The translations under genes and the position numbers were made by a program. From the NCBI GenBank assembly GCA_963833575.1, contig CAWHXY010000006.1, forward strand, positions 288,861-352,860: 64,000 bases of DNA, read 5' to 3'. Within the stretch, counting starts at the first letter, position 1. Each line of letters opens with the position of its first letter. Below the pieces are notes generated by a model that was given only the letters and a program-made list of their open reading frames with translations, did no database searches and had not been told where the DNA came from. Source of the DNA: Candidatus Bathyarchaeota archaeon (lineage in GTDB: Archaea > Thermoproteota > Bathyarchaeia > Bathyarchaeales > Bathycorpusculaceae). Shown one piece after another: positions 31,261 to 47,125 of this stretch.

Positions 31261-31340
31261 CTCCTGTACCCTCTCAACACATCCACAACAACAAACACAA
31301 CAACACGACACCAACCATTCCATACGACACAACACATTGC
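31261..31340 (+). repeat. C/A-rich low-complexity tract
   Basis: caacacatccacaacaacaaacacaacaacacgacaccaacc...cgacacaacaca. Confidence 0.5.
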
Positions 31341-31436
31341 TAAAAAGTCTTAAGTCTGGAATGCACGAATTAGCCTAATGACAGCCATAAGAGCATACAG
31401 GTCTAACGTTGATAGAACTGAAAAGGAGAAATCAAA

Positions 31437-31706: not shown

Positions 31707-31953
31707 AAAGAGCGAAAAAGGGTTGAAGCTGTAAGTTAAAAGTGGCTTTTTACCGAAAGCCTCGAATAGGTGCAAATTCTTAAAACTGCATGGATACAAC
31801 TTAAGGCTTTAAAGAGGGCAATTTATCATAAGTAGTAATTGTTTATACCTGCAGAAAGGTCTCTTAAACAGCCCTCTCGACAGAATACCTTGACTTTCGA
31901 CCTCTACATTCTGGAGCGGTCTTAGCACAAAGGATTACGTAAAAGGTGGAAAA

Positions 31954-32796
31954 ATGTCGTTTAAAACAAACGCTAAAAAAGAAACAAAGGGCCCCTACAT
32001 TAAAGATTTTTCTGACATAGCAAAAGATTATGAAAAAATATCCCTTGTACAGAAATCAGCTGCAGAAATTCTATTTGCTATAATCAATATTAACAAAAAC
32101 GAAGACGTTTTAGACCTGGGGTGTGGAACAGGAAATTTAACTAAAAGAATAAGGGATATAACTTCTGGAAAGATAGAAGGAATCGACTCCGCAGAAAACA
32201 TGATTGCTCAGGCTAAAGACAATTATGAAAAATTCAAAATACAATTTAAAGTGTTGAAAGCCAAGGATATTAATTATGCTCGTGAATTCGATGTGATATT
32301 TTGCAATTCAGCTTTTCAATGGGTAACTGATCCGGAAAAAGTTATCAAGAATTGCTATAGGACATTAAGAAAAGGCGGAAGGATAGGAATTCAGGCTCCT
32401 GCAACAAATGAGTATAGCCCAACATTTATCCAGGCGGTGGAAAGTGTCAAACAAAATCCCGCAACAAAAGAAACATTTTTGCATTTTAAATCGCCCTGGT
32501 TTTTTATGGAGACTGCTTCTGAATATAAGAAATTATTCGAGAAGGCTGGTTTTACTGTAGCGTTATCTGAAATTAATACTCTCAAATCAAAACATACACC
32601 AGAAGAAGCATTCAAGATATTTAGTTCTGGAGCAGCAGTTGGCTATCTTAATGAAGATTGTTATTCAGTAGATTTAGATGAACGCTATGTTTCAAGTTTT
32701 AATAAACTGGTGAAAAAATATTTCGCATCGCAGATAGATGAAGATGGTCTTGTTGAAGTAATATTTAACAGGATTTTTCTAATTGCTATAAAATAA
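31954..32796 (+). CDS. Class I SAM-dependent methyltransferase (Tam/BioC-like)
   Basis: VLDLGCGTG, GIDSAENM, FDVIFCNSAFQW, LRKGG. Confidence 0.9.
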   Translation: MSFKTNAKKETKGPYIKDFSDIAKDYEKISLVQKSAAEILFAIININKNEDVLDLGCGTGNLTKRIRDITSGKIEGIDSAENMIAQAKDNYEKFKIQFKVLKAKDINYAREFDVIFCNSAFQWVTDPEKVIKNCYRTLRKGGRIGIQAPATNEYSPTFIQAVESVKQNPATKETFLHFKSPWFFMETASEYKKLFEKAGFTVALSEINTLKSKHTPEEAFKIFSSGAAVGYLNEDCYSVDLDERYVSSFNKLVKKYFASQIDEDGLVEVIFNRIFLIAIK

Positions 32797-32808
32797 AGAT
32801 GGTTTAAG

Positions 32809-32821
32809 ATTAAATTTTAAT
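32809..32821 (+). repeat. Left target-site duplication ATTAAATTTTAAT
   Basis: The same 13-mer occurs at 42836-42848 in direct orientation; each copy abuts a TIR. Confidence 0.8.
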
Positions 32822-33095
32822 GCACACACACACACACTTGTTCTACGATTAGTGGATTAAGGAAAGAGGCAGTAACCAGATTAATTAGCGGTCAAACCTA
32901 AAGAGAGCACGCTCAGTAGTCTAATACCACGTAGAGAAAGGGTACAAGGGGTTTTTTTATGCTGAAAATAGCCTTCAGAGGGGCTAAGCGTAGTATAATT
33001 ATCATATATACGAGGGGTACTTTTTTACTATTTTTTTACCCCTCGTTGGGCTATTAGGGGTAAAAAATTAAGAGAAAAATTTACCCCTCGCAAAG
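32822..33095 (+). repeat. Left terminal inverted repeat (274 bp)
   Basis: GCACACACACACACACTTGTTCTACG...TTACCCCTCGCAAAG is the reverse complement of 42562-42835; no mismatch found by eye. Confidence 0.95.
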
Positions 33096-33119
33096 CCAAA
33101 ATATACTTTTTTCTTTTAT

Positions 33120-33608
33120 TCACGTCTTAACTGGAACTAACCCAAGACGATTTGCTGATTCTTCTACTGCCTTGCATCTCCTTTCTTGAATCTCAGCATC
33201 GGCAGGTTTTAGATAAGGTTTTATAAAAGACACGATTTCTTCCACAGTCTTTGAATGAACTTCATCATGTTTACAAGTTCCAAATTTATCGTAAGTATAA
33301 CAATGAGCAAGCTCGTGTACGATTTCAATAATTAATGGGAATTCGAGAAGATGCACCTCTCTCTTTTTCAAGTCATAAGTTCCAACGGTCTCAGCATATT
33401 CAAGAGGTTGCTCCAATGTTCCATGACCATACCCAACTGTAAAATTGATTCCAAATTTTATTTTAATTAATTTTACTAAATCATGTCCTTCACGCCAATT
33501 AACTGCATAACAAAGTTCTGGAAATTTATTATGTTCTAATCTGTAATATCCAGATTCTAATGCTTTTTGATTCTCATATTCAATCTCATTATTTTCCATT
33601 TTACTCAC
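33120..33608 (-). CDS. Zincin-like HExxH metallopeptidase domain protein (SprT-like), element cargo
   Basis: IVHELAH motif followed by a third His (KHDEVH). Confidence 0.6.
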   Translation of the reverse strand: MSKMENNEIEYENQKALESGYYRLEHNKFPELCYAVNWREGHDLVKLIKIKFGINFTVGYGHGTLEQPLEYAETVGTYDLKKREVHLLEFPLIIEIVHELAHCYTYDKFGTCKHDEVHSKTVEEIVSFIKPYLKPADAEIQERRCKAVEESANRLGLVPVKT

Positions 33609-33742
33609 TTTCTATTGAAGCTACATTAATTTGCAATTTGCTTGTCTGTTATTATTTCTTAGTCATTAGTCAGTTGTCTTGGTTAATTAAATTTTGACTC
33701 ATACAATAACTCTTCGTTTTTGTGGCTAAAGGATTACAAAGT

Positions 33743-33801
33743 GGTCAAACCTAAAAGAGAATACGATCGGCAGTTACATATCTGGTAAGAGAAAAGGGTA
33801 C
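33743..33801 (+). repeat. Degenerate internal copy of TIR segment 32890-32945
   Basis: GGTCAAACCTAAAAGAGA...AGAGAAAAGGGTAC versus TIR GGTCAAACCTAAAGAGAG...AGAGAAAGGGTAC. Confidence 0.75.
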
Positions 33802-33818
33802 GGATGTTCAATTCTTAC

Positions 33819-34862
33819 TTAAATTTCTTTGATAAATTCCTTTTCGTCCAAGGCAAAGTTGGCAACAAGTTTTCGCCTTATCAAACGAACCCAATTATAA
33901 TACTTGTCTCTTCTCCAATTAAAGAGAAGCCATCGTGAAAACTTTGCTTGAAAGGTTATCTCAAAATCAGATGTAAAGAAATTTTCCTTATTATAATTAT
34001 TGTTTTCTTTAGTAAATATTCCATATGGCAAACCCATGTTAACGCCATGTTTTTGAATCGAGATAACTAACTTAAAGTAGGTATGATGAAAGTGGGTTTC
34101 TCTTGAGAATTTCTTTTGCAACGTTGAAATTTGTGTTCCTTTTGGGGTAACAATAACCCATCTATCAGGTTTGTATAAATAAAATAAAGTAGTTTTTCCA
34201 AGAAAATGCTCAATAATATCGTTATTTTTCAATATAGGTTTCAAGTTTTTGCATTCAAGATTTTTTAAACTAAATAAATCTATGAACTCTTTATCATCTT
34301 TTTGAAAGCGAAAAATAGTTGGGTCGTAACTGTAAATATTGTTTTCTACACCAAGACGGTCTGGATTTGTTGTGTATCCAAAATACTCATCTTTATTCGA
34401 AGCCCAAAAAAATTCATATCCTGAAAGAGTATTAAACAAAACATATTCCGCAAAATCGAACTCAATTTTATCATACGTAAAATCATGGAGCCTTGAAAGA
34501 ATTTGTTGAGAGTAACTCGATTTATCTGTAGATAACGCTTCCCAAAAAAGCGACGCATATTGAACCGCAAACGGGGAAAATTTTGAAAGGTGCAATCGGT
34601 TCTTAGTTTTATCAACCAAAATGTTCGTGTAGATTATAGTCTTAATTTTTTCTTCAGGATATACAATTATGTAGATAGAAACAAACGTAAGAATAATTAA
34701 TGGTATTATTAGTAAAAAACCAATTGAAAAACCGTAAAAATAGAAATTTGCTAAATAAGAAGCAACTATGTTAGAAATTAATCCTATTAAGATAACAACA
34801 ACAATTAACTGCATTATCTCTTTTTGTTTTATCGAAATTGTTGGTTCCAATTCTAAGTTCAA
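33819..34862 (-). CDS. Hypothetical protein with two N-terminal TM helices, element cargo
   Basis: 347-aa AT-rich ORF; no motif recognised. Confidence 0.7.
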   Translation of the reverse strand: MNLELEPTISIKQKEIMQLIVVVILIGLISNIVASYLANFYFYGFSIGFLLIIPLIILTFVSIYIIVYPEEKIKTIIYTNILVDKTKNRLHLSKFSPFAVQYASLFWEALSTDKSSYSQQILSRLHDFTYDKIEFDFAEYVLFNTLSGYEFFWASNKDEYFGYTTNPDRLGVENNIYSYDPTIFRFQKDDKEFIDLFSLKNLECKNLKPILKNNDIIEHFLGKTTLFYLYKPDRWVIVTPKGTQISTLQKKFSRETHFHHTYFKLVISIQKHGVNMGLPYGIFTKENNNYNKENFFTSDFEITFQAKFSRWLLFNWRRDKYYNWVRLIRRKLVANFALDEKEFIKEI

Positions 34863-34969
34863 CTTTCAGTACTTATTAGACCTGAGTAGTTTTTAAATCT
34901 GTGCAACATAGAAATCCTTAACATAGAAGACCTAAAAAGTTAGTTGTGTCCTATTTACATGAGTAGAAA

Positions 34970-35512
34970 ATGAATAAAAAAACTACTGCACAAGTTCTGA
35001 TTTGTTTAGCTATTATAATTCTTTTGTCAATTAGTCTCCTTGTCTTTATTTTTCCTAAATCAATAGGGATATCACAACAAGTGTTATCGCCCTCATCAAC
35101 TCCGTCATCAACTCCCTCATCAACACCTTCACCGACAACCGTGCCAATTAATGTATTTCCAAACCAAACCCAAAACATAGAGGTAAACTGCTTTAAAGTA
35201 CAAAATACCGCTGGTTATTATAACATAAATGTCACCGACCTAAGCGTGTGGCAATTAAATGTGGGAGATGTGCAACTGAGTGAATCAATTATTGATGCTG
35301 GTATTATACCTGGTCTGAATAGTCCACCGACCACTAATTTAGTTCCTCAAAGTTGTTTTACACTTAAACCAAATGAAACGGTTACACTTCTTTTCTCAAT
35401 CGACAAACTTACAACAACAATAACGAATCCTGTATCAGTAATTGTTCATTATTGGGTTGTTGATGGTGCTAATAGTTGTTATCAAGACTATGCGAGAGCA
35501 TTTAATCTATAA
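34970..35512 (+). CDS. Membrane-anchored secreted protein with SSTP linker repeats
   Basis: N-terminal TM/signal peptide, PSSTPSSTPSSTPSPT linker, beta-rich C-terminal domain. Confidence 0.7.
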   Translation: MNKKTTAQVLICLAIIILLSISLLVFIFPKSIGISQQVLSPSSTPSSTPSSTPSPTTVPINVFPNQTQNIEVNCFKVQNTAGYYNINVTDLSVWQLNVGDVQLSESIIDAGIIPGLNSPPTTNLVPQSCFTLKPNETVTLLFSIDKLTTTITNPVSVIVHYWVVDGANSCYQDYARAFNL

Positions 35513-35560
35513 CTTGTAACTTTGATAAGAAACTTATTTAGCATCCGAATCTAAAAAAAT

Positions 35561-36586
35561 TTATAGAGTAACTATTCGAGGATTCCACGCTTTTGATTCT
35601 CCCCTCAAATATTTAGCGAGTAGAAGAGCCTCTTCATTAATCAGTGTCTCTATCTCTTGCTGACTCCCTACCTTCATTCTCGGTATGCTAACTTTCGAGA
35701 GGAAATAATCGTTTAACTTGTTTGTAAACTCGTTAGATAAATCATCCTTCAGATATTGCCTTTTAGCTTTTTTGTTAGACCGCTTCTCAGTCTTGTAAGC
35801 GAAATCTCTTTTGTTAAGGTCTTTACAATATCCGATTATGAAGTCGTCAATCAAGTATCGGTACAATTCTTGGAAGTCACACGCCAAAGAAGGCTTACCG
35901 AACTGTAAGCTGTGCAGAAAGCCTAAGAATGGCTCTAACTTTGCCCTTAATAGGGCTATGTGGACTTTCCATCTTAGAATCTCGTAAGCTAAATTAAACG
36001 TATTATTCAAACCATCATAGGCTAAGAATGTCTTTCTACCTTGTGGTCTGATTTCGTTATCGAACATACCAAATATTTGGGAGAAATACTTTCGAGAATA
36101 TTTTGCCTCGTAGCACGTTAACATTCTTCTAAGAGTCTTTTCATCATCGGAATGAATAGCGTTAACTTCATCCCTAACGAACCCAATGGGCATTAATCCG
36201 TATTTCCTTAGAACTTTATCGTAGCCTTCAGCTTTAGCTATTACAAACTTCTTTGCAACCTCTTCGCCTATTCCATTCTTTAACGCTTCATACTGCATTA
36301 TCCTTGTTTTTACATGAGAATCATCATCGAGAGACTTCAAAATTGCTACTGGGTTCCCTTTCTGCGTAAGAATCAACACATCTATTCCAAAGTAACCGCA
36401 AGTCGCTAACGCTCCGCTACTTAGCATGTTCCCTGATGTTATCTTTATTTCCCCTATTTCTTTCTCGAAGAGGGGAAACAACGTTTCCTTCTTCTCTCTA
36501 TCTCTTAGCAATAAACTTCCGTGTTTAATTCCCAAGTAGTTTCCGTAACCACTCAGGTCGATTTTTAGTACTTTCGCTCCTTTCGT
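35561..36586 (-). CDS. cas1: Standalone Cas1 endonuclease (casposase)
   Basis: Catalytic E (YEAKYSRKYF), N..LNLAY, H (GFLH) and SLACDFQE. The frame extends upstream of TTG 36535 through the Cas1 N-terminal strand (KVLKIDLSGYGNYLG) to an ACG at 36586 preceded by GGGAG. Confidence 0.93.
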   Translation of the reverse strand, partial: TKGAKVLKIDLSGYGNYLGIKHGSLLLRDREKKETLFPLFEKEIGEIKITSGNMLSSGALATCGYFGIDVLILTQKGNPVAILKSLDDDSHVKTRIMQYEALKNGIGEEVAKKFVIAKAEGYDKVLRKYGLMPIGFVRDEVNAIHSDDEKTLRRMLTCYEAKYSRKYFSQIFGMFDNEIRPQGRKTFLAYDGLNNTFNLAYEILRWKVHIALLRAKLEPFLGFLHSLQFGKPSLACDFQELYRYLIDDFIIGYCKDLNKRDFAYKTEKRSNKKAKRQYLKDDLSNEFTNKLNDYFLSKVSIPRMKVGSQQEIETLINEEALLLAKYLRGESKAWNPRIVTL

Positions 36587-36741
36587 ATTTAGCTCCCTTC
36601 TACCTATATAGAAGGCGAAACGCTCTAAAAAGGCTTATTACGTAAAAAGGGGCAGTAATAAAGCTTTATTTTACTACGGAAACCTTTCTGCCAGCCTTTA
36701 GCTTTATCCGCTTGGATACTTTCCTTAGAAAGTAAAGATAA

Positions 36742-37056
36742 TTAGATATTTCGGTAGTGCCATCCGCCAGCTTGACCTCTGTTCCTTAGCGTAGTATGCT
36801 TCCATTTTAAATCTAAGGTGCTTCGGAACTTTCTAAATCTGCATTGAGTAGGATTAGAGAGCAGATTAGGGCATTTTACTTCTTCACAGAATTTTACCTT
36901 AATGAACTCGCCATCTAACATTTTATTACAGCACGGATGCCCCTTTCTATGCAGAGGGACACGTATCTGCATGTTCTCTCTCATTTTCTTCCTAATCTCT
37001 ATCGGAACATCGTTGAATGGATCGTTCAAGTCTATATTGTCACTTTCACTTGACAA
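36742..37056 (-). CDS. Cys-rich hypothetical protein (element)
   Basis: TTG start with GGTGA SD; HPCC...C..C..C. Confidence 0.55.
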   Translation of the reverse strand: MSSESDNIDLNDPFNDVPIEIRKKMRENMQIRVPLHRKGHPCCNKMLDGEFIKVKFCEEVKCPNLLSNPTQCRFRKFRSTLDLKWKHTTLRNRGQAGGWHYRNI

Positions 37057-37068
37057 ACAATCACCTTC

Positions 37069-37263
37069 CTATTTTATCTCTTCGAGAACCTTGTTTGAAA
37101 TTTTAGTTTTAGATAATCTCGTGGCTTTCTTTTTACAGAGAATACACTTTCTTCTTTTGTCAAGATTGGCTACGTTTCTATATCCTTTGACAGGATTATG
37201 GATAACGTAGAAAGCTAATTTCTCGAAATGCTCAGCACATAAACCAATTTTTATTTTGTTCAA
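37069..37263 (-). CDS. Small zinc-finger protein (element)
   Basis: LCAEH...CILC; GAGG SD upstream. Confidence 0.55.
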   Translation of the reverse strand: MNKIKIGLCAEHFEKLAFYVIHNPVKGYRNVANLDKRRKCILCKKKATRLSKTKISNKVLEEIK

Positions 37264-37575
37264 TTTATTCTTCCTCTTGTGTCACGCACTAACAGGCAGA
37301 ACTACATCTGCAAGGTGATGTAGCTGTATCAGAAACCCTCTCTACTTACCTGGCTAATGATTCGTGCAAATTATTTTAGAATATAAAAAAAGGGAAAATT
37401 GGTATGCTGTTCGCTACGACTGAAGCCTTTCTAAAACTTTCTTAGCTTTCGTTGTCAGAGTTTCTTCTTAGGATGGAATGCAGTCCACGATTTTGGGATA
37501 GGCGTTTGAGGAGAAGCGTTTTGTCCAAGAGACGTTTTTTCTCTACTCTTTCCCATTTTGTTAATCACTTCCTCT

Positions 37576-37839
37576 TTAGGCATTGTTACTTGTGATATCA
37601 AGTAACCGTCTGTTGCTTTGGATAGCTCCGAAACGTTTCTCTATTCTTCCGCAGTTTGTTTCTTCTACTCTGCTAAAATCGATTTTCTGTAGCACTACGA
37701 TGTAGACTTTTCCGAATTTATCTTGCGTAGCTTTCACTCTTGCTCCATAAACTGTGATTTCAGAAATCTTGTCATTACGTTCACTGAACTTGATGACCTC
37801 TTCGTGTGCTTTGTTTTGTACAAAAACTTTTCTAATCAG
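37576..37839 (-). CDS. Hypothetical 87-aa protein, CTG start overlapping the upstream stop (CTGA)
   Basis: Manual translation LIRKVFVQNKAHEEVIKF...DITSNNA*; open for 88 codons; GGAG SD; missed by the ORF track. Confidence 0.55.
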   Translation of the reverse strand: MIRKVFVQNKAHEEVIKFSERNDKISEITVYGARVKATQDKFGKVYIVVLQKIDFSRVEETNCGRIEKRFGAIQSNRRLLDITSNNA

Positions 37840-38237
37840 TCGCTCTCTCCTTTTTTAGGCTTTGTCGTAATCCTGATTTTGATTCTATCGAATAGTGACG
37901 GTTTCTGATTCTGAGGTACTGGAAACGAATCGTTTGGCAAAGTACCTTCAAGGCTCCCTTCGTATGGTGCGTTAATATTAGTATCCTTGTCTTTTTCGAG
38001 TTGTTCAAGTTGTTCCTTAGAAAGTTTGTAAGCTCCGATGTCTAATCCGTATAATCCTTGCTCTCTTTCGGATTCAATATCTTCGATGTTGTCAAGCATA
38101 CGATTCTTTTCTGCTTCGGTATTTAATGGAGAAATTCTTGGTAGATTATTCTTTAGAGCCTGATGGGAATGTGTAGGAATAAAGAAATGTTGCCCTTTTT
38201 GATTTCTCGAACCTTTCTTTCTTGTTCTCCATGGCAT
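37836..38237 (-). CDS. Hypothetical protein (element)
   Basis: ATG with GGAGTGA SD; basic N-terminus MPWRTRKKG. Confidence 0.7.
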   Translation of the reverse strand: MPWRTRKKGSRNQKGQHFFIPTHSHQALKNNLPRISPLNTEAEKNRMLDNIEDIESEREQGLYGLDIGAYKLSKEQLEQLEKDKDTNINAPYEGSLEGTLPNDSFPVPQNQKPSLFDRIKIRITTKPKKGESD

Positions 38238-38254
38238 GAATTATCACTCCTTTT

Positions 38255-38437
38255 TTAGGTTAAAATATCAACTATTCTGACTTCACCGACTGTCTGTAGA
38301 GCTTCGGTTGCGGTACGTTTCCATCGTAGCTTAAACATTTCAAAATCATTTACTAATTCTACTGGACTTTGAACCTTAATTTTAGCTACAACAAAAATGT
38401 GCCTTGTTTCTGTCAGTTCTTTATTTTGTTTCTCCAT
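38255..38437 (-). CDS. Hypothetical protein (element)
   Basis: ATG with GGAAGGTGA SD, in a tightly packed operon. Confidence 0.6.
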   Translation of the reverse strand: MEKQNKELTETRHIFVVAKIKVQSPVELVNDFEMFKLRWKRTATEALQTVGEVRIVDILT

Positions 38438-38477
38438 GCGTAATCACCTTCCTGTTTAGTAATCCAAAATTCTATTC

Positions 38478-38603
38478 TCAAATTACAGTAACTTTTCCAC
38501 AATCCCTGCAAACAAAAGAATTGTATCGGCGTGCTTCAAAATCGTAATAGTTCTCCTTGAGTTCTAACGTATTTTTAGAATTACAAAATTTGCAGTCAAC
38601 CAT
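38478..38603 (-). CDS. 41-aa zinc-ribbon protein (element)
   Basis: Manual translation MVDCKFCNSK...FVCRDCGKVTVI*; below the ORF-track cutoff. Confidence 0.6.
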   Translation of the reverse strand: MVDCKFCNSKNTLELKENYYDFEARRYNSFVCRDCGKVTVI

Positions 38604-38604
38604 T

Positions 38605-38820
38605 CTACTCTTCACCTTCCTCACTTTCATCTTCGTCATCTTCGTTTCGTTGCACTTTCTTCTTAGAGTAGGTTATGAGCACTTGACCTTTAATATTCAA
38701 AGATTCAATGCTTAGAATGTAGTGCTTGTCTAACTTCTTGAGAACTTCATTTAGTTCGTCTTCATCTGGATTGTTCAGTACCTTCGCTCTAACAATCGTT
38801 TTATCTCCCATTAAAATCAC
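38605..38820 (-). CDS. Hypothetical protein with acidic tail (element)
   Basis: GAGGTGA SD upstream of the internal ATG; C-terminal EDDEDESEEGEE. Confidence 0.6.
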   Translation of the reverse strand: MILMGDKTIVRAKVLNNPDEDELNEVLKKLDKHYILSIESLNIKGQVLITYSKKKVQRNEDDEDESEEGEE

Positions 38821-38832
38821 CTCACTCTTTTG

Positions 38833-39438
38833 TTAGTTACTTTCTTGTAACCAAGATTCGCCTAAGCCTTCGCAGGTATTTTTATGTTTAATGTAGGCGA
38901 CAATTCCCGTCATGTCTCCGTTGTTATAAAACCGAATTATTTCTGGTGGCGGAATTTTTTCGTTCTTAGAGTTAACTCGGATTGTTATTGTGCCGAAATC
39001 CCTTAACTTCGCAAAACTTCTGTTTATTATGCCTAATTTTTTTGTTTCGTTTATGTGCCACTGAATTTCTTTCCAAGTTAAAGGCTTACCAAATATTATG
39101 CAATAGTTCCCTAACCTATTCCCGAAAAGGTCAGTCTTTGTACTTTCGGAAGTCCTTAATACCATTAGGCTTCCTAACTTGTAGAACTCTGCGTATTCTT
39201 TAGCGAAGTCTAAAACGTAATATTCTATGAGGTCGTCAACGTCTAACATTAAGAAATTGCTTGAAGTAAATCCTAAGACTACGTTTCCTTCTGGCGTTGT
39301 ATCTTCGATAGCCTTGTTTCCAGTAAAATCTGCTTGATACCCTTTAGGTTCGCTACAGAAAAACTCTTGTTCCTTTCGTTTTTTCAGCTTAGCCTTATCG
39401 CCTAAGAGATTTAATTGTACGTCTTGGCTAACGCTCAT
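38833..39438 (-). CDS. Putative AEP/primpol-like protein (element)
   Basis: FLMLDVDD (hhhDhD), LRTS...GNYCIIF (motif II-like, His replaced by Cys), ITIRV...K. Similarity judged by eye only. Confidence 0.4.
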   Translation of the reverse strand: MSVSQDVQLNLLGDKAKLKKRKEQEFFCSEPKGYQADFTGNKAIEDTTPEGNVVLGFTSSNFLMLDVDDLIEYYVLDFAKEYAEFYKLGSLMVLRTSESTKTDLFGNRLGNYCIIFGKPLTWKEIQWHINETKKLGIINRSFAKLRDFGTITIRVNSKNEKIPPPEIIRFYNNGDMTGIVAYIKHKNTCEGLGESWLQESN

Positions 39439-39769
39439 ATACCATCCCTGGTTTGTAGAATTTAATTCGCTTAACCTTTATCCAAGGAGTACGCTGATGA
39501 AGCTCTCCAAAAGTGACTTCTTCACCGTTTTTAAGTAGCGGTATCATTTTGAAGTCTTTAATTCTGTTGCAGGTGAATCTAATCATCTTGTAATTCATTT
39601 TACCGCTTACACTGTTTGGGATTTTTACATGAAAGCTCTGACGCTTGCTGATTCCATTCTTCGTTTCGTAATTAACGTAGAACCTTGCGTACTGTTTCGG
39701 TCTGCCAATATGCCTTCGTAGATGAATAGGCAGCGGTCTAAGCTTTGGAACTTTTCTTCCTTCGCTCAT
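39428..39769 (-). CDS. Basic hypothetical protein (element)
   Basis: K/R-rich 113-aa ORF overlapping its neighbours; GAGGTG SD. Confidence 0.65.
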   Translation of the reverse strand: MSEGRKVPKLRPLPIHLRRHIGRPKQYARFYVNYETKNGISKRQSFHVKIPNSVSGKMNYKMIRFTCNRIKDFKMIPLLKNGEEVTFGELHQRTPWIKVKRIKFYKPGMVYER

Positions 39770-39941
39770 GTCTATGCACCTCTCTTTTTAGGTTAGATTC
39801 TTTTTTTGGCATAGTCCCTATAGGAACTAAATCGCCATCTTCTAAGGAAACATCCGAAGTGTCAAAAGGTGGCTTAGTCCTAATCTCGTTAGGCTTAGCG
39901 TATCTTCTGTTTCCGTCTTTGTCAATTATAATCCAACGCAT
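39738..39941 (-). CDS. Hypothetical protein (element)
   Basis: ATG with GGAG upstream, in operon. Confidence 0.55.
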   Translation of the reverse strand: MRWIIIDKDGNRRYAKPNEIRTKPPFDTSDVSLEDGDLVPIGTMPKKESNLKREVHRHERRKKSSKA

Positions 39942-40029
39942 AGCTTTCGCTAATCTCCTAATCGTTTTGTTTTCTAAAAAAACTCAGTTTGTTCTAATTT
40001 TTCTTTTTTGGGACTAAAGCGGTAAGTTC

Positions 40030-40974
40030 TCAGGCTTTCTTACCACATGAATCTCTCCACTTGTAGAACTGGTACGAATTTTGTAATGGATTCATTTTTA
40101 AATTGACCCAATTAGAAAGAAATCTCATCAATTCAATGTCTTCATCGTTAACGCTATCTCTGCCATCACGCAAAGCACTACACTTTGTCATTGTTCTAAT
40201 AATCTTAAACAGCCGTATCCCTTTAATTTCAAAATTCCTTAGTCTTTCGTTATACCCTCGCTTAATGTCCTGCGTAATTAAATATAGCTCTCTACCATAC
40301 TTCTCTGAAATTTTTATATCATAACGTTTTTTGAACTCATGAATTTTTATGTTTTTAACGAAATCTTTGGTATCTTTTTGCAAAATAAGAGAATCAAACA
40401 CTGAAGCGAGTACAGATTCAGGGACATCAAAACTAAAGACTAAAGGTCTTGAAAAGAATCCACCACGATACAGTTTAGCTTTGACCATTTTCTTTCCAAC
40501 AGTAAACATTCCAAGCGTGTTTATTGCGGCAATTATTCCCCCTCTTGCTCCTTTGTACTTTTTCATTTCATCAGGGAATATTGCGTAAGTACTTTCATTA
40601 GAAAGCCCTTCCTCTGTCAACGCATTTATGAACTCTATAGTTGACTCAATAGTATTCTCTTTGAATGAGAACATTGAATTGAAATCATAAACTATCGTTG
40701 TCGGAAGAATTTTAGGATTCTCGAATAGAAGCTTTATTTTCCCAGATATCAAATCCCGTTGGTAGCCATGAGCGGTGAATCTTCGCATAACTTGAATACT
40801 TTTACTATTGCAAGCGAACTTTTTTAGAGCCTCTGTCCTTCCAGATTCGGCTTCACTCAATAATAATAAGCTGACAGGTTTTTCGTTCTTTACGTAAACT
40901 GATAATGCCGCAAGTTCTATTGCGTCAAATACAGGTTCTAATCCAATTAATTCGGTTTTTTTCAAGTGTTTCAC
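40030..40974 (-). CDS. MCM-like AAA+ ATPase (putative helicase) of the element
   Basis: LLLLSEAESGRT (degenerate Walker A), IVYDF (Walker B), ALTEEG, IIAAIN (sensor 1), FFSRP (Arg finger), GIRLFKIIR..CSALRDGRDSVNDEDI (sensor-2 helix of the MCM/MoxR/chelatase clade). Confidence 0.65.
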   Translation of the reverse strand: MKHLKKTELIGLEPVFDAIELAALSVYVKNEKPVSLLLLSEAESGRTEALKKFACNSKSIQVMRRFTAHGYQRDLISGKIKLLFENPKILPTTIVYDFNSMFSFKENTIESTIEFINALTEEGLSNESTYAIFPDEMKKYKGARGGIIAAINTLGMFTVGKKMVKAKLYRGGFFSRPLVFSFDVPESVLASVFDSLILQKDTKDFVKNIKIHEFKKRYDIKISEKYGRELYLITQDIKRGYNERLRNFEIKGIRLFKIIRTMTKCSALRDGRDSVNDEDIELMRFLSNWVNLKMNPLQNSYQFYKWRDSCGKKA

Positions 40975-41036
40975 CTACTTTTAAGTTTTTTAAGAAATGG
41001 ATAATCCTGAGTTTTCGGGTTCTTCCGAATATCAAT

Positions 41037-41238
41037 TCAGCAGTTGTTCTTTAGAATCTGGCGTACTACTTTCGCTGGCACTATCACGTTATGGGTACAA
41101 GTTGGGCACTTGAACATTTTATCGCCTTTATTTTTATGATTACGCCACAGCCTTGGGTCTGGTGCCCACCTATAGCCACACTTTTCACTTCTGCACCTAA
41201 CATATACCTTTTTTTTCGTTTCTCTCGTTTTTCAGCAT
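41037..41238 (-). pseudogene. Zinc-ribbon gene frameshifted in an A8 tract
   Basis: GAGGAG SD and ATG at 41238. Removing one A from the A8 run (T8 at 41209-41216) fuses it to VYVRCRSEKCGYRW...FKCPTC...*. Confidence 0.55.
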
Positions 41239-41513
41239 CTCCTCTGTTTTTTATTTTATTTGTTTTTTCAAAACCCTCTCTGACTGTATTTTTTAGATTT
41301 AGTTAAAATTTGCTTGAGCCTCGCAAAGCTCCGAGAGCTACTTTCTCGTTCTCTTCTACCTTTACCATAGGCTTGCGGTTATTTAAACCTTTTCCCAAGG
41401 CGGAAATCGGAAATCCGCTAAGTTTTCTGCTTCTTTTCACCATTAAATCCTGAATAGTGACACAAATATTCTACACAAAAGCTAATGCACACTGACTCTA
41501 AGTAAAAATAGCG

Positions 41514-41987
41514 TTATACTGAGCTGACAACATTAGGAACTATGACAGTTATTCTTGCTTTGTGACCTATCAAATGTTTATCTACTGTTAGCTGAATTCT
41601 TCCGCAATGATAGAGCTTACCTTTAGATTTGACCTTGTGTTTTTTTATCCGTACTTCGTAAGAGTGAATCGTAAACTTTCCTTTCTGCTCTATATCGTGT
41701 TCTACTGTTTCTTTTAGCATTATTTCTTCTTTTGGTGATTCCCAAATAAATTGTGAATAATTCCTTTTCATGATTTCAAGGTTGTCTCGGTAAGTCCCTA
41801 AGTTGTCGAGTAAGTCTAACTCTATATACTCTTCAAACTCTAACTCTGGATTAAGTTTTCTGAAAAGCTTCTCAATCATGTGAATCTGCAATCCCCATGG
41901 CATTATTCTGTAATTCTTCTTGCTGTGTCTTCGCATAATTAAAGTAAATGTAAAAAGAAGTGTAAAAGTTTTACTAAAACTATTCAC
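41514..41987 (-). CDS. Hypothetical protein with C-terminal AbrB/DUF2080-like swapped-hairpin motif (element)
   Basis: GRIQLTVDKHLIGHKARITV; the likely start is the internal MRRHSKK. Confidence 0.5.
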   Translation of the reverse strand: MNSFSKTFTLLFTFTLIMRRHSKKNYRIMPWGLQIHMIEKLFRKLNPELEFEEYIELDLLDNLGTYRDNLEIMKRNYSQFIWESPKEEIMLKETVEHDIEQKGKFTIHSYEVRIKKHKVKSKGKLYHCGRIQLTVDKHLIGHKARITVIVPNVVSSV

Positions 41988-42050
41988 ACTAATTTAGAGT
42001 CTTACGCCTTAATTAAGCAAAGAACGTATTAGATTTATTGAGAAAGAAAG

Positions 42051-42518
42051 ATGTTCGATTTTGCATTTGCTGTTGCCGTTGCATTAATCGCTCCATTACT
42101 TGCAACACATTACTATTTTAAAGACAAAATTAAAAAAGAATTTGAAAAAAGGAAAAGCAAATATTCTGAGACTATGGCGAAAAATCAAGTTGACGGGTTC
42201 AAAGCTCTTATACAGAAGTATGGGACTTCTGAAATTCCGCCCTACGATAAGTTTGAAGAATATTACTGTGACCTTTACAAGAAACAATTTGAAGGATTAG
42301 ACGATATTACCGAAGCTCTAAGACTTGAGAATTTCCTAAATAATACCCTGTTCTTTTTCTTTAGTGCTATAGCTTTATTCTTGCTTGCAGGGATTTTCCC
42401 TTATGTTGCTACGTCGGATTTTACTCTTGCAGGTTTTTCCGTTCCTTCCATGATTGGCGGAGTAATAGCAACGATAATGGCATGTTTTAGAATCTACCAA
42501 ATTGAGAAGATATTATAG
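42051..42518 (+). CDS. Hypothetical membrane protein (3 TM), element cargo
   Basis: One N-terminal and two C-terminal hydrophobic helices. Confidence 0.7.
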   Translation: MFDFAFAVAVALIAPLLATHYYFKDKIKKEFEKRKSKYSETMAKNQVDGFKALIQKYGTSEIPPYDKFEEYYCDLYKKQFEGLDDITEALRLENFLNNTLFFFFSAIALFLLAGIFPYVATSDFTLAGFSVPSMIGGVIATIMACFRIYQIEKIL

Positions 42519-42561
42519 AACATGCCGTTTGGATTAGTTTCGGATAAAAGTGAAATTAGTC

Positions 42562-42835
42562 CTTTGCGAGGGGTAAATTTTTCTCTTAATTTTTTACCCC
42601 TAATAGCCCAACGAGGGGTAAAAAAATAGTAAAAAAGTACCCCTCGTATATATGATAATTATACTACGCTTAGCCCCTCTGAAGGCTATTTTCAGCATAA
42701 AAAAACCCCTTGTACCCTTTCTCTACGTGGTATTAGACTACTGAGCGTGCTCTCTTTAGGTTTGACCGCTAATTAATCTGGTTACTGCCTCTTTCCTTAA
42801 TCCACTAATCGTAGAACAAGTGTGTGTGTGTGTGC
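42562..42835 (-). repeat. Right terminal inverted repeat (274 bp)
   Basis: Reverse complement of 32822-33095. Confidence 0.95.
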
Positions 42836-42848
42836 ATTAAATTTTAAT
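42836..42848 (+). repeat. Right target-site duplication ATTAAATTTTAAT (shared with second element)
   Basis: Identical to 32809-32821. Confidence 0.8.
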
Positions 42849-42976
42849 GCACACACACATTTTCCAACGGTCAGTAGCTCAAGGAATTTCAGCGGCAAAA
42901 CGTAAACGCATAAAAGAATACTCACGCTCAATAGGAAAATAATGTACGTATAAACGCTAAGAGTACATTTCAATGT

Positions 42977-43013
42977 GTTCCAAAGTGGGAACGGTATGTT
43001 CCACGAATAGAAC
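42977..43013. promoter_or_regulatory. Two GTTC-N8-GAAC palindromes 21 bp apart (putative operator)
   Basis: GTTCCAAAGTGGGAAC (42977-42992) and GTTCCACGAATAGAAC (42998-43013), upstream of 43071. Confidence 0.4.
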
Positions 43014-43070
43014 TAAATATTCTGTTAACCAAGAAATTTGTCAAGGCAAATAAGAGCATAGGCGGAATTA

Positions 43071-44279
43071 TTGGCTGTGTCACATGAGGCTAAACAGCAA
43101 GTATTGAAGAAAAGTGAAGCGGTCAAATCAGGAACCTTTGTATTAGTCTTAACCCTTTTCTCTATTCTCTTAGCCGCCAATTCAGTTCATGCTATTGAAG
43201 TTACCGCCACAGTACCCGTAGGTTCAGCCCCAAATGCGGCAGTGTATGACTCTGGAAGGGGGGAAGTATTTGTTGCCAATGCTGGATCAAATAGTGTCTC
43301 TGTCATCTCCGATGCCAACAACTCTTTGATTGCAACTATTGCTTTGCCGTCTGATTCTCCGAGCCCAAGCGATATAGCCTATGATTCTATCACCGGAGAA
43401 ATATTCGTGGTGAATAATCCCGTCGACAATTTTTTTGCTAGCAGCACCATCTCGGTAATAACTGACACAACTAACAGCATTGTTACCACCATAAACTTGG
43501 GATTCAATAATGTTGTTGGAATTTGCTACGACTTGAACATGAGAGACATAGTTGTAGCCAGCCAAAACCCAGGCGGTCCAGTAGGTCCTGTAACTTTCAT
43601 TTCCGACAGCAGCTATAGCGTAGCGTCGACAGTCAATGTTGGAGGTCATCCTCAAGGGATAGTTTACGACTCAGACAAGAGAGAAATCTTCGTATCCACT
43701 GAAGGAGACACAAACTCTTGGGTCTCTGTAATTCCAGACTATTCAAACACTGTTATTGCAAATGTAACTGTTCAAAATGTTCCCATCGGGTTAGCTTATG
43801 ATTCTGGCAAAGGGGAAATATTTTTAGCAAGCGTAGGGACACCCGAACTTGTCAATCCTGAGTCGGGGGTTACTGTTATTTCAGACCAGACCAACACTGT
43901 GGTAGCATCTATTCCTATGTCTGAAGGTACGGTAAACTTGGCTTATGACAGTAAGCAAGGATTGATATTCGTCTGCCATGCTGGTGAAAACAATGTTGTT
44001 TCGGTAATATTGGACAGCAACAACTCTGTGATTGCGAATGTAACTGTAGAAAACTCTACACTGTGGGGTCTATGTTATGACTCTGCAAAAAGCGAAATAT
44101 TCGCAACGAATCCTTACAACGCGACAATTACGGTAATTTCTGACCAGTTGGCGACTACTGCCCCGACAACAACGCCATCTTCAACTCCTACCGTTCCAGA
44201 GTTTCCAACTTTGATAATTCTGCCATTTTTTGCTATTGTAATACTACTATCACTTGTTTCTAAGAAAATTAGAGATTAA
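43071..44279 (+). CDS. YVTN/YncE beta-propeller surface protein with PEF-CTERM sorting signal
   Basis: Seven YDS..GEIFV.N...VSVISD..N.V repeats, Thr/Pro linker, VPEFPT followed by TM and a basic tail. Confidence 0.88.
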   Translation: MAVSHEAKQQVLKKSEAVKSGTFVLVLTLFSILLAANSVHAIEVTATVPVGSAPNAAVYDSGRGEVFVANAGSNSVSVISDANNSLIATIALPSDSPSPSDIAYDSITGEIFVVNNPVDNFFASSTISVITDTTNSIVTTINLGFNNVVGICYDLNMRDIVVASQNPGGPVGPVTFISDSSYSVASTVNVGGHPQGIVYDSDKREIFVSTEGDTNSWVSVIPDYSNTVIANVTVQNVPIGLAYDSGKGEIFLASVGTPELVNPESGVTVISDQTNTVVASIPMSEGTVNLAYDSKQGLIFVCHAGENNVVSVILDSNNSVIANVTVENSTLWGLCYDSAKSEIFATNPYNATITVISDQLATTAPTTTPSSTPTVPEFPTLIILPFFAIVILLSLVSKKIRD

Positions 44280-44523
44280 CGATTCGGGGATTCCAAGTTT
44301 TTGTTTCTCCTCTAAAATATTAGCGAGCAATAGACCCTCTTCATTAATCAGCGTTTCTATCTCTTGCTGATTTCCTACCTTCATTCTCGGTAATCTAACT
44401 TTCGAGAGGAAATAATTGTACAGCTTATTTGTAAACTCGTTAGCCAAATAATGTTTCATATATTGTCGTTTAGCTTTTTTGTTAGACCGTTTCTGAGTCT
44501 TGTAAGCGAAATCCCTTTTTCAA
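44269..44523 (-). pseudogene. cas1: cas1 3'-terminal relic
   Basis: KRDFAYKTQKRSNKKAKRQYMKHYLANEFTNKLYNYFLSKVRLPRMKVGNQQEIETLINEE closely matches the C-terminus of the 35561 Cas1; 1-nt frameshift before YFRGETKTWNPRIVNL*. Confidence 0.9.
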
Positions 44524-44656
44524 AGGTGTATGTTTTCTTTCGCCTGTTTGGTTAGGAAAATTCCCAAAGCAGAAAGAGGGGTTTACTTCATTTGAGTGCG
44601 TAAGACTTAAACAGTTATTAGTCTTTAACCAAAACAAGTTTACGGAGTCACTAATC

Positions 44657-47125
44657 ATGCAACCTATGCCTAAGGAATACAATTTCACAGAGATTGAGCG
44701 TAAGTGGCAGCAAAAATGGGAAGAAATGGGCATTTATCATTATGATTGGAACGACAAAAAGCGCATTCCTTTCAGCATAGATACCCCACCGCCTTATCCC
44801 TCGGGCGAATTGCACATGGGCAACGTTTTGAATTGGACCTACTTTGACATGGTTGCCAGATTCAAACGCATGCAAGGCTTCAACGTGCTTTTCCCCCAGG
44901 GCTGGGACTGCCACGGTTTAGGCATAGAAATTCAAGTTGAAAAAGCAAGAAATATCCGGAAACGCGATGTACCTCCAGACCAGTTCCGTGAATGGTGTAT
45001 TGAAACGGTAGAAAAATACATCTCTATGATGAAGGAAGGCATACTGAAAATGGGTGCAAGCATAGACTGGACCACCGAATACAAAACGATGGATCCGGAC
45101 TATTGGCGTAGAACCCAACTAAGTTTTATTTTACTTTACAAAAAAGATTACATGTACCGAGGCACTCATCCAGTAAATTGGTGTCCAAGAGATGAAACAG
45201 CCATCGCAGATGCAGAAGTCGACCATATTAAAAAGGAAGGCACCCTTCATTACATACGCTTCCAACTGGAAGGCAGCAATGAATATTTGCTAATCGCGAC
45301 TTCACGTCCCGAATTCATACCCGCATGCGTCGCTGTGGAAGTTAACCCAAAAGATGAACGCTACAACAAATACATAGGCAGAAAAATCGCTGTTCCCCTC
45401 GTGAACCGCGAAGTAACCATCATTAGCGAAGAATCGGTAGATCCATGCTTTGGCACGGGCGTTGTTCAAATTTGCACTTACGGCGACAAAGAAGACGTAA
45501 AAACAGTCATAAAACATAAACTGCCAGTTATCCGCCTATTAACCGAAAGCGGCAAAATCAGCGAGGCAGGCTGCAAATACGCTGGCTTATACGTTAACCA
45601 AGCACGCGCAGCCATCGTTGCAGACTTAACTGCAGCGGGCTTACTTGAGAAGAGTGAGAAGATTCAGCAGGAAGTTGGCGTCTGCGATCGATGCAAAGCG
45701 CAAGTCGAGATTTTAGAGGTTAAACAATGGTTCATGAAAACCCTTCCATTATCTGAAGCAGTAGAGAAGAACGCCAACGAGATTCCATGGTATCCAGATT
45801 ACATGAAAAACCGCTTAATAGACTGGACAAGGGCGCTGGATTGGGATTGGGTTGTTAGCCGCCAAAGATTATTTGCTACGCCAATTCCAGTTTGGTACTG
45901 CAAGAGTTGTGGTGAAGTCATCGTTGCAAAGGAAAGCTGGGTGCCAATTGACCCAAGAATGGAAAAACCTAGAATTGACAAATGCCCTAAATGTGGTGGA
46001 ACCGAATTCAATGGTGAAGCTGATGTGTTGGATACTTGGATGGATTCCTCAATTACCTGTGCTGTCCATGCTGGCTGGCCCGACCGAGCTGATTGGAAAC
46101 ACTTGTTCCCTGCAAGCATGCACCCATCAGGCACAGACATCATCCGAACCTGGGCATACTACCTCATGGTACGCCACTTAGCCTTATTCGATGAACGCCC
46201 ATTCAACAGCGTCCTCATAAACGGCATGGTGCTGGGCGCAGACGGCAGAAAAATGAGCAAATCGCTCAAAAACTATGCTGCTGCACCCGAAGTGCTAAAC
46301 AAAAACGGAGCTGACGCCACAAGACAATGGGCAGCTGGCGGAGGAGCAACAGGCTCAGACATTCCCTACCGCGCCCAAGATATTGAGTACGGCAGACGCT
46401 TCTTAGTGAAACTGTGGAATGCTTCAGGTTTCACAAGCAACCTTCTAGCAGACTACAAGCCTGATCCAAAAGCAGATTTGGACCTTCAGCCCCTCGACAA
46501 ATGGATACTCAGCAAAGCCGAAAACGTGACAAAGAAGGTTACTGAGGCGTTTGAAAAATGCCAATTTAACATTGCCGTTGAAGACGTACGGAATTTCACA
46601 TGGCATGTTTTCTGTGATTATTATGTTGAAGCCGTTAAGGACAGGCTCTATAATCCGAATCCTGATTTGGATGGACAAGCTAAAAAGTTGGCCGCTCAAT
46701 TTACACTCTACGAAGTTCTTTACCGCATGCTGCAACTGCTAGCACCCGTTACCCCCCACATTACTGAAGAAATATACCAACACATGTTTGCTGAAAACAA
46801 GGGTTTCGAAAGCTTGCAGATTTCACAATGGCCGAAGTTCAACGCTCAACTTGTTAATGAACAAGCAGAAAAGAACGGCAACTTACTTATTGCCATCATC
46901 GGAGAAGTGCGTCATGACAAAGCAGAGAAAAAACTTCCACTAAACGTACCAATAAAAAACCTAATTGTTTATGCGGGCAATGACGAAAACGCGAAAGTAA
47001 TCACGTCAGCCAAAGGAGACATCTCTGGAACCTTGAAGCTATCAAACATTCAAGTTCTGGCCGAAAAAAGTGGTGAAGGACGTCAAGTTGGCTCTACCGA
47101 TGTTCGTGTCAAAGTTGAATATTGA
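44657..47125 (+). CDS. valS: Valine--tRNA ligase (archaeal type)
   Basis: DTPPPYPSGELHMGN, GWDCHG, WVVSRQR, DTWMDSS, KMSKS. Confidence 0.96.
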   Translation: MQPMPKEYNFTEIERKWQQKWEEMGIYHYDWNDKKRIPFSIDTPPPYPSGELHMGNVLNWTYFDMVARFKRMQGFNVLFPQGWDCHGLGIEIQVEKARNIRKRDVPPDQFREWCIETVEKYISMMKEGILKMGASIDWTTEYKTMDPDYWRRTQLSFILLYKKDYMYRGTHPVNWCPRDETAIADAEVDHIKKEGTLHYIRFQLEGSNEYLLIATSRPEFIPACVAVEVNPKDERYNKYIGRKIAVPLVNREVTIISEESVDPCFGTGVVQICTYGDKEDVKTVIKHKLPVIRLLTESGKISEAGCKYAGLYVNQARAAIVADLTAAGLLEKSEKIQQEVGVCDRCKAQVEILEVKQWFMKTLPLSEAVEKNANEIPWYPDYMKNRLIDWTRALDWDWVVSRQRLFATPIPVWYCKSCGEVIVAKESWVPIDPRMEKPRIDKCPKCGGTEFNGEADVLDTWMDSSITCAVHAGWPDRADWKHLFPASMHPSGTDIIRTWAYYLMVRHLALFDERPFNSVLINGMVLGADGRKMSKSLKNYAAAPEVLNKNGADATRQWAAGGGATGSDIPYRAQDIEYGRRFLVKLWNASGFTSNLLADYKPDPKADLDLQPLDKWILSKAENVTKKVTEAFEKCQFNIAVEDVRNFTWHVFCDYYVEAVKDRLYNPNPDLDGQAKKLAAQFTLYEVLYRMLQLLAPVTPHITEEIYQHMFAENKGFESLQISQWPKFNAQLVNEQAEKNGNLLIAIIGEVRHDKAEKKLPLNVPIKNLIVYAGNDENAKVITSAKGDISGTLKLSNIQVLAEKSGEGRQVGSTDVRVKVEY

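Follow-up and report, generated by a model that had tools for sequence, protein, structure and literature searches.

A Cas1-linked MCM-fold ATPase and mini AEP-like protein in casposon-like elements of Bathyarchaeia-type archaea

The element and its termini

An element of about 10 kb lies within the window, the 64,000-nt stretch of DNA analysed here, and carries a Cas1 gene together with genes for an MCM-like ATPase and a protein resembling archaeo-eukaryotic primases (AEP), the latter two previously unannotated. It is bounded by terminal inverted repeats (TIRs) of 274 nt, located at 32822-33095 (left, starting GCACACAC) and 42562-42835 (right). A 13-nt direct repeat, ATTAAATTTTAAT, flanks the element on both sides (32809-32821 and 42836-42848) as its target-site duplication. 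The two 274-nt ends are identical, and when the flanking repeats are included (32809-33095 and 42562-42848) the single differing base falls in the flanking repeat; this near-perfect identity suggests that the element was inserted recently. GGGGTA boxes are located within the inverted ends. Among public runs, none of RNA is listed as containing this sequence; one DNA run was found to match 26% of the sampled words (contigs), and one of its contigs spans the right junction (42822-43216); over 31000-45500, where the cover of this run is fragmentary with a depth of 0-3, no joints were seen.

The Cas1 gene (35561-36535, minus strand) is casposase-like and matches PF01867 with an E value of 6.7e-36 and TIGR00287 with 141.8 bits (cut-off 71.7), while no subtype model passes. 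It is the sole Cas1 found in the 2.75-Mb host genome, and neither Cas2 nor a CRISPR context is present around it. Its conserved N-terminal strand extends 5′ of the first canonical start codon, to about 36631. The element thus has a Cas1-family integrase with no CRISPR link, as well as TIRs and a target-site duplication, as casposons do. A 3′-end remnant of a second Cas1 gene at 44250-44527 on the minus strand (208 nt, 86% identical to 35613-35820) is the trace of an older neighbouring element. No family B DNA polymerase (PolB) is encoded in the element, which has no ORF longer than 347 aa, and when two PolBs of related loci were used as tblastn queries, none was found in the 64-kb window. Evidently, the context assumed in an earlier sequence-only reading of this DNA, namely Cas1 at 35561-36535, inverted ends and no PolB in the window, was correct, and both ORFs on which that reading rested are present on the minus strand with the motifs it named (SEAESGRT, YDF, the hhhDhD motif LMLDVD, and Cys113); conservation in both homologue families shows that these motifs are not accidental.

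The MCM-like ATPase

The ATPase gene is located at 40030-40974 on the minus strand and encodes 314 aa from a GTG start. Its Walker A (SEAESGRT, residues 40-47, nt 40834-40857) and Walker B (YDF, residues 96-98, nt 40681-40689) motifs are conserved columns among 68 homologous proteins (E ≤ 0.001). A confident structure model (pLDDT 90.6, pTM 0.91) has an AAA+ fold, with MCM as the best structural match and the core and lid arranged in the MCM manner, which bears out the MCM-clade assignment made from sequence motifs. No match to PF00493 was obtained for the ATPase at E ≤ 1, the only match in the whole genome being the 685-aa host MCM, and hhalign comparison with the host MCM motor domains gave a probability of 6.5%. 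Further motif residues are Asn152, Arg176, Arg254 and Arg269. The first three are conserved in 93/117, 119/119 and 118/119 family members, respectively, and it is only in an alignment of low probability that they coincide with sensor 1, the SRF arginine finger and sensor 2 of MCM.

Unlike archaeal and eukaryotic MCMs and the MCMs of archaeal viruses and plasmids, the window ATPase has no N-terminal OB/Zn domain, with just 39 residues preceding the P-loop, and no winged helix; the host MCM is twice its size. Its Walker B reads Asp-aromatic in place of the DE of MCM helicases, and the catalytic Glu is found in none of 119 family members, the residue after Asp/Glu being F, Y, L, M or I. Arg46 replaces the P-loop Lys in the window copy (Lys in 104 and Arg in 13 of 117 family members). 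Given these substitutions, helicase activity of the window copy, as proposed in the sequence-only reading, is doubtful. No longer or fused forms were found, which is weak evidence. Searches of PHROGs and NCBIfam, and tblastn against annotated plasmids and phages, gave no useful match. The most distant relatives (locus L064) have neighbour genes that match no Pfam family and are therefore silent on function outside the Cas1 context.

The AEP-like protein and its partner

The AEP-like gene (38833-39438, minus strand) encodes 201 aa from an ATG start, with a conserved core at about residues 51-195. In the structure model, blocks within residues 61-140 reach pLDDT 95-98, and residues 1-33 are below 50. 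The core, a small palm domain, shows a weak yet consistent resemblance to AEP primases and primase-polymerases. AEP motif I is present as LMLDVD (residues 63-68, nt 39235-39252) on a strand formed by residues 62-70; the motifs quoted here are conserved columns among 84 homologous proteins (E ≤ 0.001), and D66 and D68 are kept in 116 of 117 close and 51 of 51 distant relatives. The motif II His is present in 46 of 52 distant relatives, in which it aligns with the His of the syntenic A3 family, whereas it occurs in 0/121 members of the window's clade (C 74, A 21, S 8, F 7, L 4, G 2); the window copy has Cys113 (nt 39100-39102) there. At motif III the window has Thr150, a position occupied by D or E in 41 of 52 distant relatives; in the clade, the six commonest residues at this position are all non-acidic (S 62, Y 20, F 10, T 5, H 4, N 4; 105/121). 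Asp103, specific to the clade (108/121), might substitute for the lost third acidic residue.

No curated AEP profile in Pfam, PHROGs or NCBIfam matched the window protein, and it has no significant sequence match to HP0184/DUF1882 (PDB 2atz) or to PF24387 ('AEP 1D-like'), which are among its closest known counterparts. Sub-cut-off matches were obtained for its relatives, to PF24387 (5/47), RepB_primase (3/47) and Prim-Pol (1/47). No fused forms were found, all 118 relatives being at most 308 aa. The AEP assignment of the sequence-only reading is therefore upheld in part: the weak fold match and the DxD motif agree with it, and the His and the third acidic residue are missing. Primase activity of the window copy, which that reading had also considered, is likewise doubtful, with the His and the acidic residue at position 150 lost in its clade.

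Substitutions such as Arg46 and Cys113 could also mark the module of the window copy as an inactive relic, carried as a decayed passenger. The start-codon problem of Cas1 would fit such decay, as would the decayed copies with stops that are present in other genomes. However, both ORFs are intact, the 274-nt ends point to recent insertion, and a non-His residue is common to 121/121 clade members, which share many invariant residues (S97, R154, K158 and G117). Such uniformity indicates a conserved state and not decay, and we regard the relic explanation as highly unlikely.

A third gene (39428-39769, minus strand, 113 aa), overlooked in the sequence-only reading, shares 11 nt with the beginning of the AEP-like gene and co-occurs with this type of AEP-like gene in 8/8 loci. 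Complex prediction for the two proteins scored 0.82, against 0.00 for the best control, and the 113-aa protein is thus predicted to bind the AEP-like protein as a heterodimer. Profile comparison gave no signal (0.1% probability) between it and the small ORF that belongs to the other type of module. Profile searches of the PDB with families A1, A2, A3 and A6 returned unrelated proteins, with best E values of 0.5-1.7. A mini-protein with the pattern 'DKD...GRHYY' in a distant clade was also compared with A3 and A6 (<1%); its sole Pfam hint is a weak one to AEP-TOTE, in 2/12 members with a best E of 0.015, and we make no AEP claim for that clade.

Linkage to Cas1 and PolB in related loci

Of the 24 related loci that have 2 kb or more on each side, the MCM-like gene adjoins Cas1 in 22, and a homologous AEP-like gene comes after the MCM-like gene in 20 of 21 close loci. 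The two genes accompany Cas1 in dozens of related elements, and in related elements they are also associated with inverted ends; in some loci 1.2-3.9 kb separates the module, on either strand, from Cas1. No relatives (0) were found in IMG/VR viral contigs. The sequence-only reading had staked its module on AAA+ and AEP folds and on co-occurrence with Cas1 or TIRs. With AAA+ and AEP-like folds and this linkage in hand, neither of these grounds gives reason to abandon it.

The same reading had suggested that the module may replace PolB. PolB is present in just 3/24 related loci: in L018 and L024, genes for the MCM-like protein, the AEP-like protein, Cas1 and a family B polymerase stand in one row, and in L028 PolB is 4.6 kb from the module. 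The module therefore does not simply stand in for PolB but occurs along with it, and PolB is best seen as an optional addition to a core that is more constant.

Proposed role of the module

On balance, we consider it probable that the three genes form the replication-initiation module of a casposon family that mostly lacks a polymerase. The MCM-fold AAA+ ATPase, the 113-aa partner and the mini AEP-derived palm protein, beside Cas1, would make up the constant core of casposon-like transposons of Bathyarchaeia-type archaea, mostly without a DNA polymerase. We infer that this core sets off replication of the element: an origin, perhaps at the GGGGTA boxes of the inverted ends, would be recognised and/or primed by the AEP-derived protein together with its partner, and opening or unwinding of the DNA would fall to the ATPase ring. 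Copying could then be done by the host polymerase or, in the few elements that have one, by their own PolB, after which Cas1 would insert the copied element. The remodelled AEP site and an ATPase without the Walker B Glu suggest that the module's main role may be that of an ATP-bound complex for origin binding and loading, and not that of a fast helicase with a true primase. What the analysis itself establishes is the AAA+ fold and the AEP-like fold match, the conservation, the association with Cas1 and inverted ends, the rarity of PolB and a predicted heterodimer of the AEP-like protein and its partner; all biochemical activities are inferred from these.

The same features can be read in terms of transposition. 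The AAA+ protein might regulate the Cas1 integrase or select targets, as TnsC, MuB, TniB and IstB do, with the AEP-derived protein and its partner serving as non-catalytic DNA-binding adaptors. Close linkage to Cas1 (22/24) agrees with such an accessory role, the family-wide absence of the Walker B Glu suits an ATP-bound switch better than a motor, the AEP-like clade has lost the His and an acidic residue, and one of the 68 ATPase homologues has a precomputed match to TniB (PF05621). We nevertheless think an accessory role rather unlikely, and prefer replication initiation.

Comparison with known systems

Casposons are seen as ancestral to the CRISPR adaptation machinery, and their definition as self-synthesizing rests on the PolB that they carry. 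As described for casposon families 1-4 (Krupovic et al. 2014, 2016, 2019; PMC4046053, PMC4779613, PMC6563490), Cas1 is likewise the sole recombinase, TIRs and a target-site duplication are present, and sites are re-used in tandem, as the remnant at 44250-44527 indicates here. Small Zn-finger and other small ORFs are found both there and in the window element, and accessory helicases are reported in these descriptions for some casposons. By the account in PMC4046053, casposons were identified through cas1 together with polB, and all those described there have PolB; polymerase-less relatives would thus be overlooked. The window element, by contrast, lacks PolB, as do most of its relatives, and its constant partners, the MCM-fold ATPase and the AEP-like protein, do not figure in those descriptions.

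The family 5 casposases (Salgado et al. 2022, PMC9755687), to go by their description, likewise combine Cas1 with inverted repeats and mostly lack PolB. The family was set up from 6/10 hot-spring Cas1-solo proteins, with PolB in Cas1_1244 only; it is said to be mostly archaeal and its neighbours are hypothetical proteins. Its description terms the family non-self-replicating transposons and names no replication genes. We found no published description of a Cas1-linked MCM-like/AEP-like module among the accounts compared here. A widespread family in uncultured archaea, in which Cas1 is constantly accompanied by the MCM-fold ATPase and the mini AEP-like protein and only a minority has PolB, offers a function that can be tested for the hypothetical neighbours of PolB-less Cas1 transposons and raises the question of how polymerase-less Cas1 elements get copied.

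Modules that likewise join an AEP-type domain to a ring ATPase on mobile DNA are found in archaeal plasmids and integrated elements, and BcMCM-type proteins are AEP-MCM fusions. The module described here differs in having separate small proteins and a third partner. MetMaz1FA1A3-E1, as described in PMC4779613, carries a primpol-SF3 helicase fusion.

CRISPR-associated Prim-Pols (CAPPs; Zabrady et al. 2021, PMC8211822) provide a parallel in some CRISPR systems, in which Prim-Pols work with Cas1-Cas2: an AEP-type protein, sometimes with a helicase, again lies beside Cas1. According to the account given there, CAPPs belong to CRISPR-Cas operons with Cas2, are larger, keep their catalytic residues and are proven polymerases, whereas here Cas2 and CRISPR context are absent and the AEP site is altered. 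On the model of a proposal for CAPPs, the AEP-like protein, aided by the ATPase, might make the second strand of an excised ssDNA intermediate or fill target-duplication gaps, with no replication of the whole element. In the window clade the His and an acidic residue are missing, and in some loci 1.2-3.9 kb lies between Cas1 and the module, which may be on either strand, so that integration-coupled synthesis seems quite improbable to us.

Replication initiation could be extended into a bolder and, in our estimate, unlikely scenario: that these elements form a branch of Cas1 transposons in their own right, possibly an older one, with a small primosome (an MCM-fold ring and a two-subunit mini-AEP), to which PolB was a later optional addition; that the CRISPR associations of Prim-Pol or helicase with Cas1 descend from or repeat this arrangement; and that the AEP of the window clade works without the His through a rewired metal site (D66, D68 and D103). 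For biochemistry, nature provides a series of AEP-like proteins that either have or lack the canonical His, and of AAA+ proteins without the Walker B Glu. The target-site duplication of 13 nt (14 counting G) is slightly shorter than the 15 bp reported for the A. boonei casposase (PMC9939771).

Organization of the Cas1-bearing element

Three ORFs on the minus strand make up the module: that of the ATPase (40030-40974, 314 aa), a 113-aa ORF (39428-39769) and that of the AEP-like protein (38833-39438, 201 aa), the last two overlapping by 11 nt. They lie within a stretch of reduced G + C content (0.33-0.38 versus 0.39-0.46 in the surroundings), with inverted repeats at its two borders (32809-33095 and 42562-42848, each including a flanking 13-mer). 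The inverted repeat proper is 274 nt long and, as read directly from the sequence, starts with GCACACAC; the identical 13-mer on both flanks, ATTAAATTTTAAT, is a target-site duplication. The Cas1 gene (35561-36535; PF01867, E 6.7e-36; TIGR00287, 141.8 bits) is the sole Cas1 of the 2.75-Mb host genome, and its product passes none of the CRISPR-subtype models. The longest ORF in the element is at most 347 aa, and a search of the whole window with PolB queries from related loci gave no match. Therefore, the module resides in a casposon-like element that lacks PolB.

Casposons were discovered through the co-occurrence of cas1 and polB, and, in the parts of these reports covered, the described families 1-4 all have PolB (PMC4046053, PMC4779613, PMC6563490). 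A 'family 5' of casposases was proposed from hot springs, most without PolB and with only hypothetical neighbours; in the part of that report covered, its authors read them as non-self-replicating (PMC9755687). The Cas1 clade of the window may or may not be this clade. Literature searches of partial coverage turned up no account of Cas1 transposons that carry an MCM-like together with an AEP-like gene.

A conserved N-terminal strand of Cas1 (KVLKIDLSGYGNYLG) was found at 36536-36631 (minus strand), upstream of the first in-frame ATG/GTG/TTG; counted from TTG, the protein has 324 aa versus 342-350 aa in relatives. This points to either a non-canonical start or an N-terminally cut protein. Two small Cys-rich ORFs between Cas1 and the module (36742-37056, 104 aa, with homologues in L004/L005 and L007; 37069-37263, 64 aa; both minus strand) possibly encode Zn-ribbon DNA-binding proteins. 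Inside the inverted ends, GGGGTA / TACCCC boxes form inverted pairs (33011-33090 and 42567-42646), and similar GGGGTAAAGTTTTATCC-type palindromes accompany the inverted repeats in four related loci (L002, L015, L017 and L020); both are candidate protein-binding or origin sites.

Beyond the right duplication, a short GCACACACACA matches the beginning of the inverted end, and 208 nt at 44320-44527 (86% identical) are left over from the 3' end of a second Cas1. Each of these indicates an older neighbouring copy, and the region 42849-44527 has the appearance of an earlier, tandem element that has since decayed. A secreted repeat protein of 402 aa (43071-44279) is encoded between them.

The MCM-fold ATPase

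Pfam, PHROGs and NCBIfam gave no family name for the ATPase, the sole domain match being AAA_lid_8 under the cut-off (E 0.022). It has 68 homologues, those with names being Bathyarchaeota or Bathyarchaeia. Profile comparison with host-type MCM motor domains gave a collinear alignment over 237 columns, pairing the P-loops, SR motif and lid helix at a probability of only 6.5%, and the Pfam MCM model run across the host genome found only the 685-aa host MCM. Thus the ATPase, which has no N-terminal domain, is of MCM-type fold, yet outside the MCM family by sequence.

The active site is unusual. In an alignment of 132 unique sequences, an acidic residue immediately following the Walker B Asp/Glu was found in 0/119, and the P-loop Lys was replaced by Arg in 13/117, the window copy among them. 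Near-invariant residues were Arg176 (119/119), Arg254 (118/119) and Glu121 (117/119), as well as an unusual Glu43 within the P-loop (114/117).

The AEP-like protein and its predicted partner

The AEP-like protein has 84 close homologues. A search of 1.84 billion representatives returned 118 relatives, none longer than 308 aa, so the family is always free-standing. Its model is confident in the core and poor over residues 1-33, most homologues beginning at about residue 50. Structural matches of this predicted model are weak, yet all in one direction. Foldseek gave AsfvPrimPol and RepB' at E 0.05-0.2; among viral models, proteins of filamentous archaeal viruses came first (E 5e-4 to 7e-3), followed by giant-virus primases and VirE/D5-like proteins; and the nearest named Atlas clusters were PF24387 'AEP-like' (0.92) and DUF1882 (0.87). 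In a Pfam scan of 47 members, with all matches sub-threshold, the commonest were PF24387 (5) and RepB_primase (3), Prim-Pol appearing in one member and tied with other one-member families.

The most telling evidence comes from aligned distant relatives, and points to a remodelled AEP-type site. The DxD is kept in 116/117 close and 51/51 distant relatives. At Cys113, 46 of the 52 distant relatives have His versus none of 121 in the window's clade, which bears out the sequence-only reading of a Cys at the usual His position and argues for clade-wide remodelling, not random mutation. The position of Thr150 is Asp or Glu in 41/52 distant relatives; in the window's clade its six commonest residues (105/121) are all non-acidic. 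Asp103, in an inserted hairpin, is conserved in that clade (108/121). The ATPase and AEP-like ORFs both carry the motifs first described for them.

Complex prediction supports binding of the 113-aa protein to AEP-like residues 50-201, with scores of 0.32, 0.83 and 0.82 and hence a median of 0.82, against 0.00 for the highest-scoring of three control pairings. The score mark was met by 58/80 solved complexes and 2/110 mismatched pairs, a calibration only rough here because our own alignments were supplied. At least 3% of contacts are shared between the runs, and the partner has a pLDDT of at least 78. In the predicted interface, partner strand 27-31 would be added to the N-terminal strand 53-59 of the AEP-like core.

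Conservation of the module in related loci

The comparison covered 76 related loci (3 from genomes, 73 from metagenomes and 0 from viral contigs), in 74 of which an ORF matched the ATPase profile (68 distinct proteins). Among de-duplicated loci with at least 2 kb on both sides, Cas1 was found in 22/24, the AEP-like gene in 14/24 and PolB in 3/24; with at least 5 kb, the counts were 10/10, 5/10 and 1/10. Of the 21 close-clade loci having at least 1.3 kb downstream, 20 have an AEP-like gene after the ATPase. Inverted repeats, with approximate boundaries, surround the module in seven loci (spans 6-10 kb), none with a PolB match. As a rival identity for the module, we regard a TnsC/MuB-like regulator of Cas1 as unlikely.

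Two module types were recognised. The window and seven loci have the ATPase, the 113-aa ORF and the AEP-like gene; the second type has the ATPase, a ~120-aa ORF and a ~196-aa protein (A3), often then Cas1 and a ~115-aa ORF. A3 has the motifs LDYD and GRHA, the latter's His being invariant, and more invariant Asp residues. Profile comparison of A3 with the distant AEP-like relatives gave 97.2% probability (E 4e-11), DxD and His being in register; compared directly with the window's clade alone, the match is weak (16%). The small ORFs, which show no similarity to each other, are never mixed between types (8/8 and 18/19).

ATPases 30-33% identical to the window copy form a divergent clade, which goes with a Cas1 that is likewise divergent, and longer (PF01867, E 5e-52). 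The loci of this clade (L003, L037-L055; e.g. L040:7572-11581) hold a Cas1 of 402-445 aa, the ATPase and two small ORFs. The ~125-aa ORF reads ...KIDKD...GRHYYI.ID..., with faint AEP-TOTE matches (2/12), and its profile resembles none of the other AEP-like types.

The ATPase occurs in 26 of 401 genomes sampled from the class, in several of them in copies that contain in-frame stops, and within the genus, its own genome aside, in only 1/39 and only as a fragment. For the module in the window, we consider decay very improbable.

Proposed role and relation to PolB

The module is clearly delimited and conserved and lends itself to experiment; its chemistry is putative. We favour, by a modest preference, a replication-initiation module, in which an AEP-derived heterodimer would mark or prime the origin, the MCM-fold ring would open the DNA, a host polymerase or an optional PolB would copy the element, and Cas1 would integrate the copy. 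Given the missing catalytic residues, the window's module may act more by binding ATP and DNA than by turnover. Prim-Pols adjoining Cas1-Cas2 are known in CRISPR systems (PMC8211822); CAPP-like second-strand or gap synthesis at integration seems to us rather improbable, more so than regulation of Cas1. The remaining probability falls to functions not yet thought of.

The earlier proposal of a replication module replacing PolB stands in part: the association with Cas1 and inverted repeats favours it, and replacement of PolB is not general, since module and PolB can coexist. Family B DNA polymerase genes were found in L018 (6945-8870), L024 (10847-12763) and L028 (1-2030); in L018 and L024, PolB (PF00136, E 3.6e-27) directly follows Cas1 and the ~115-aa ORF, and that of L028 is related to these.

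Just upstream of the ATPase, a ~170-210-aa ORF forming one cluster was seen in three loci (L018:2792-3313, L021:769-1365, L028:5966-6604); in the L018 protein, the sole member scanned, the first 40 residues match CcdA antitoxin (PF07362, E 1.7e-8). A catalase (L020:7863-9320), a GmrSD-type restriction enzyme (L028:2933-4720) and a type I methylase (L021:6251-7873) lie near related modules, the catalase outside the inverted repeats of its locus.
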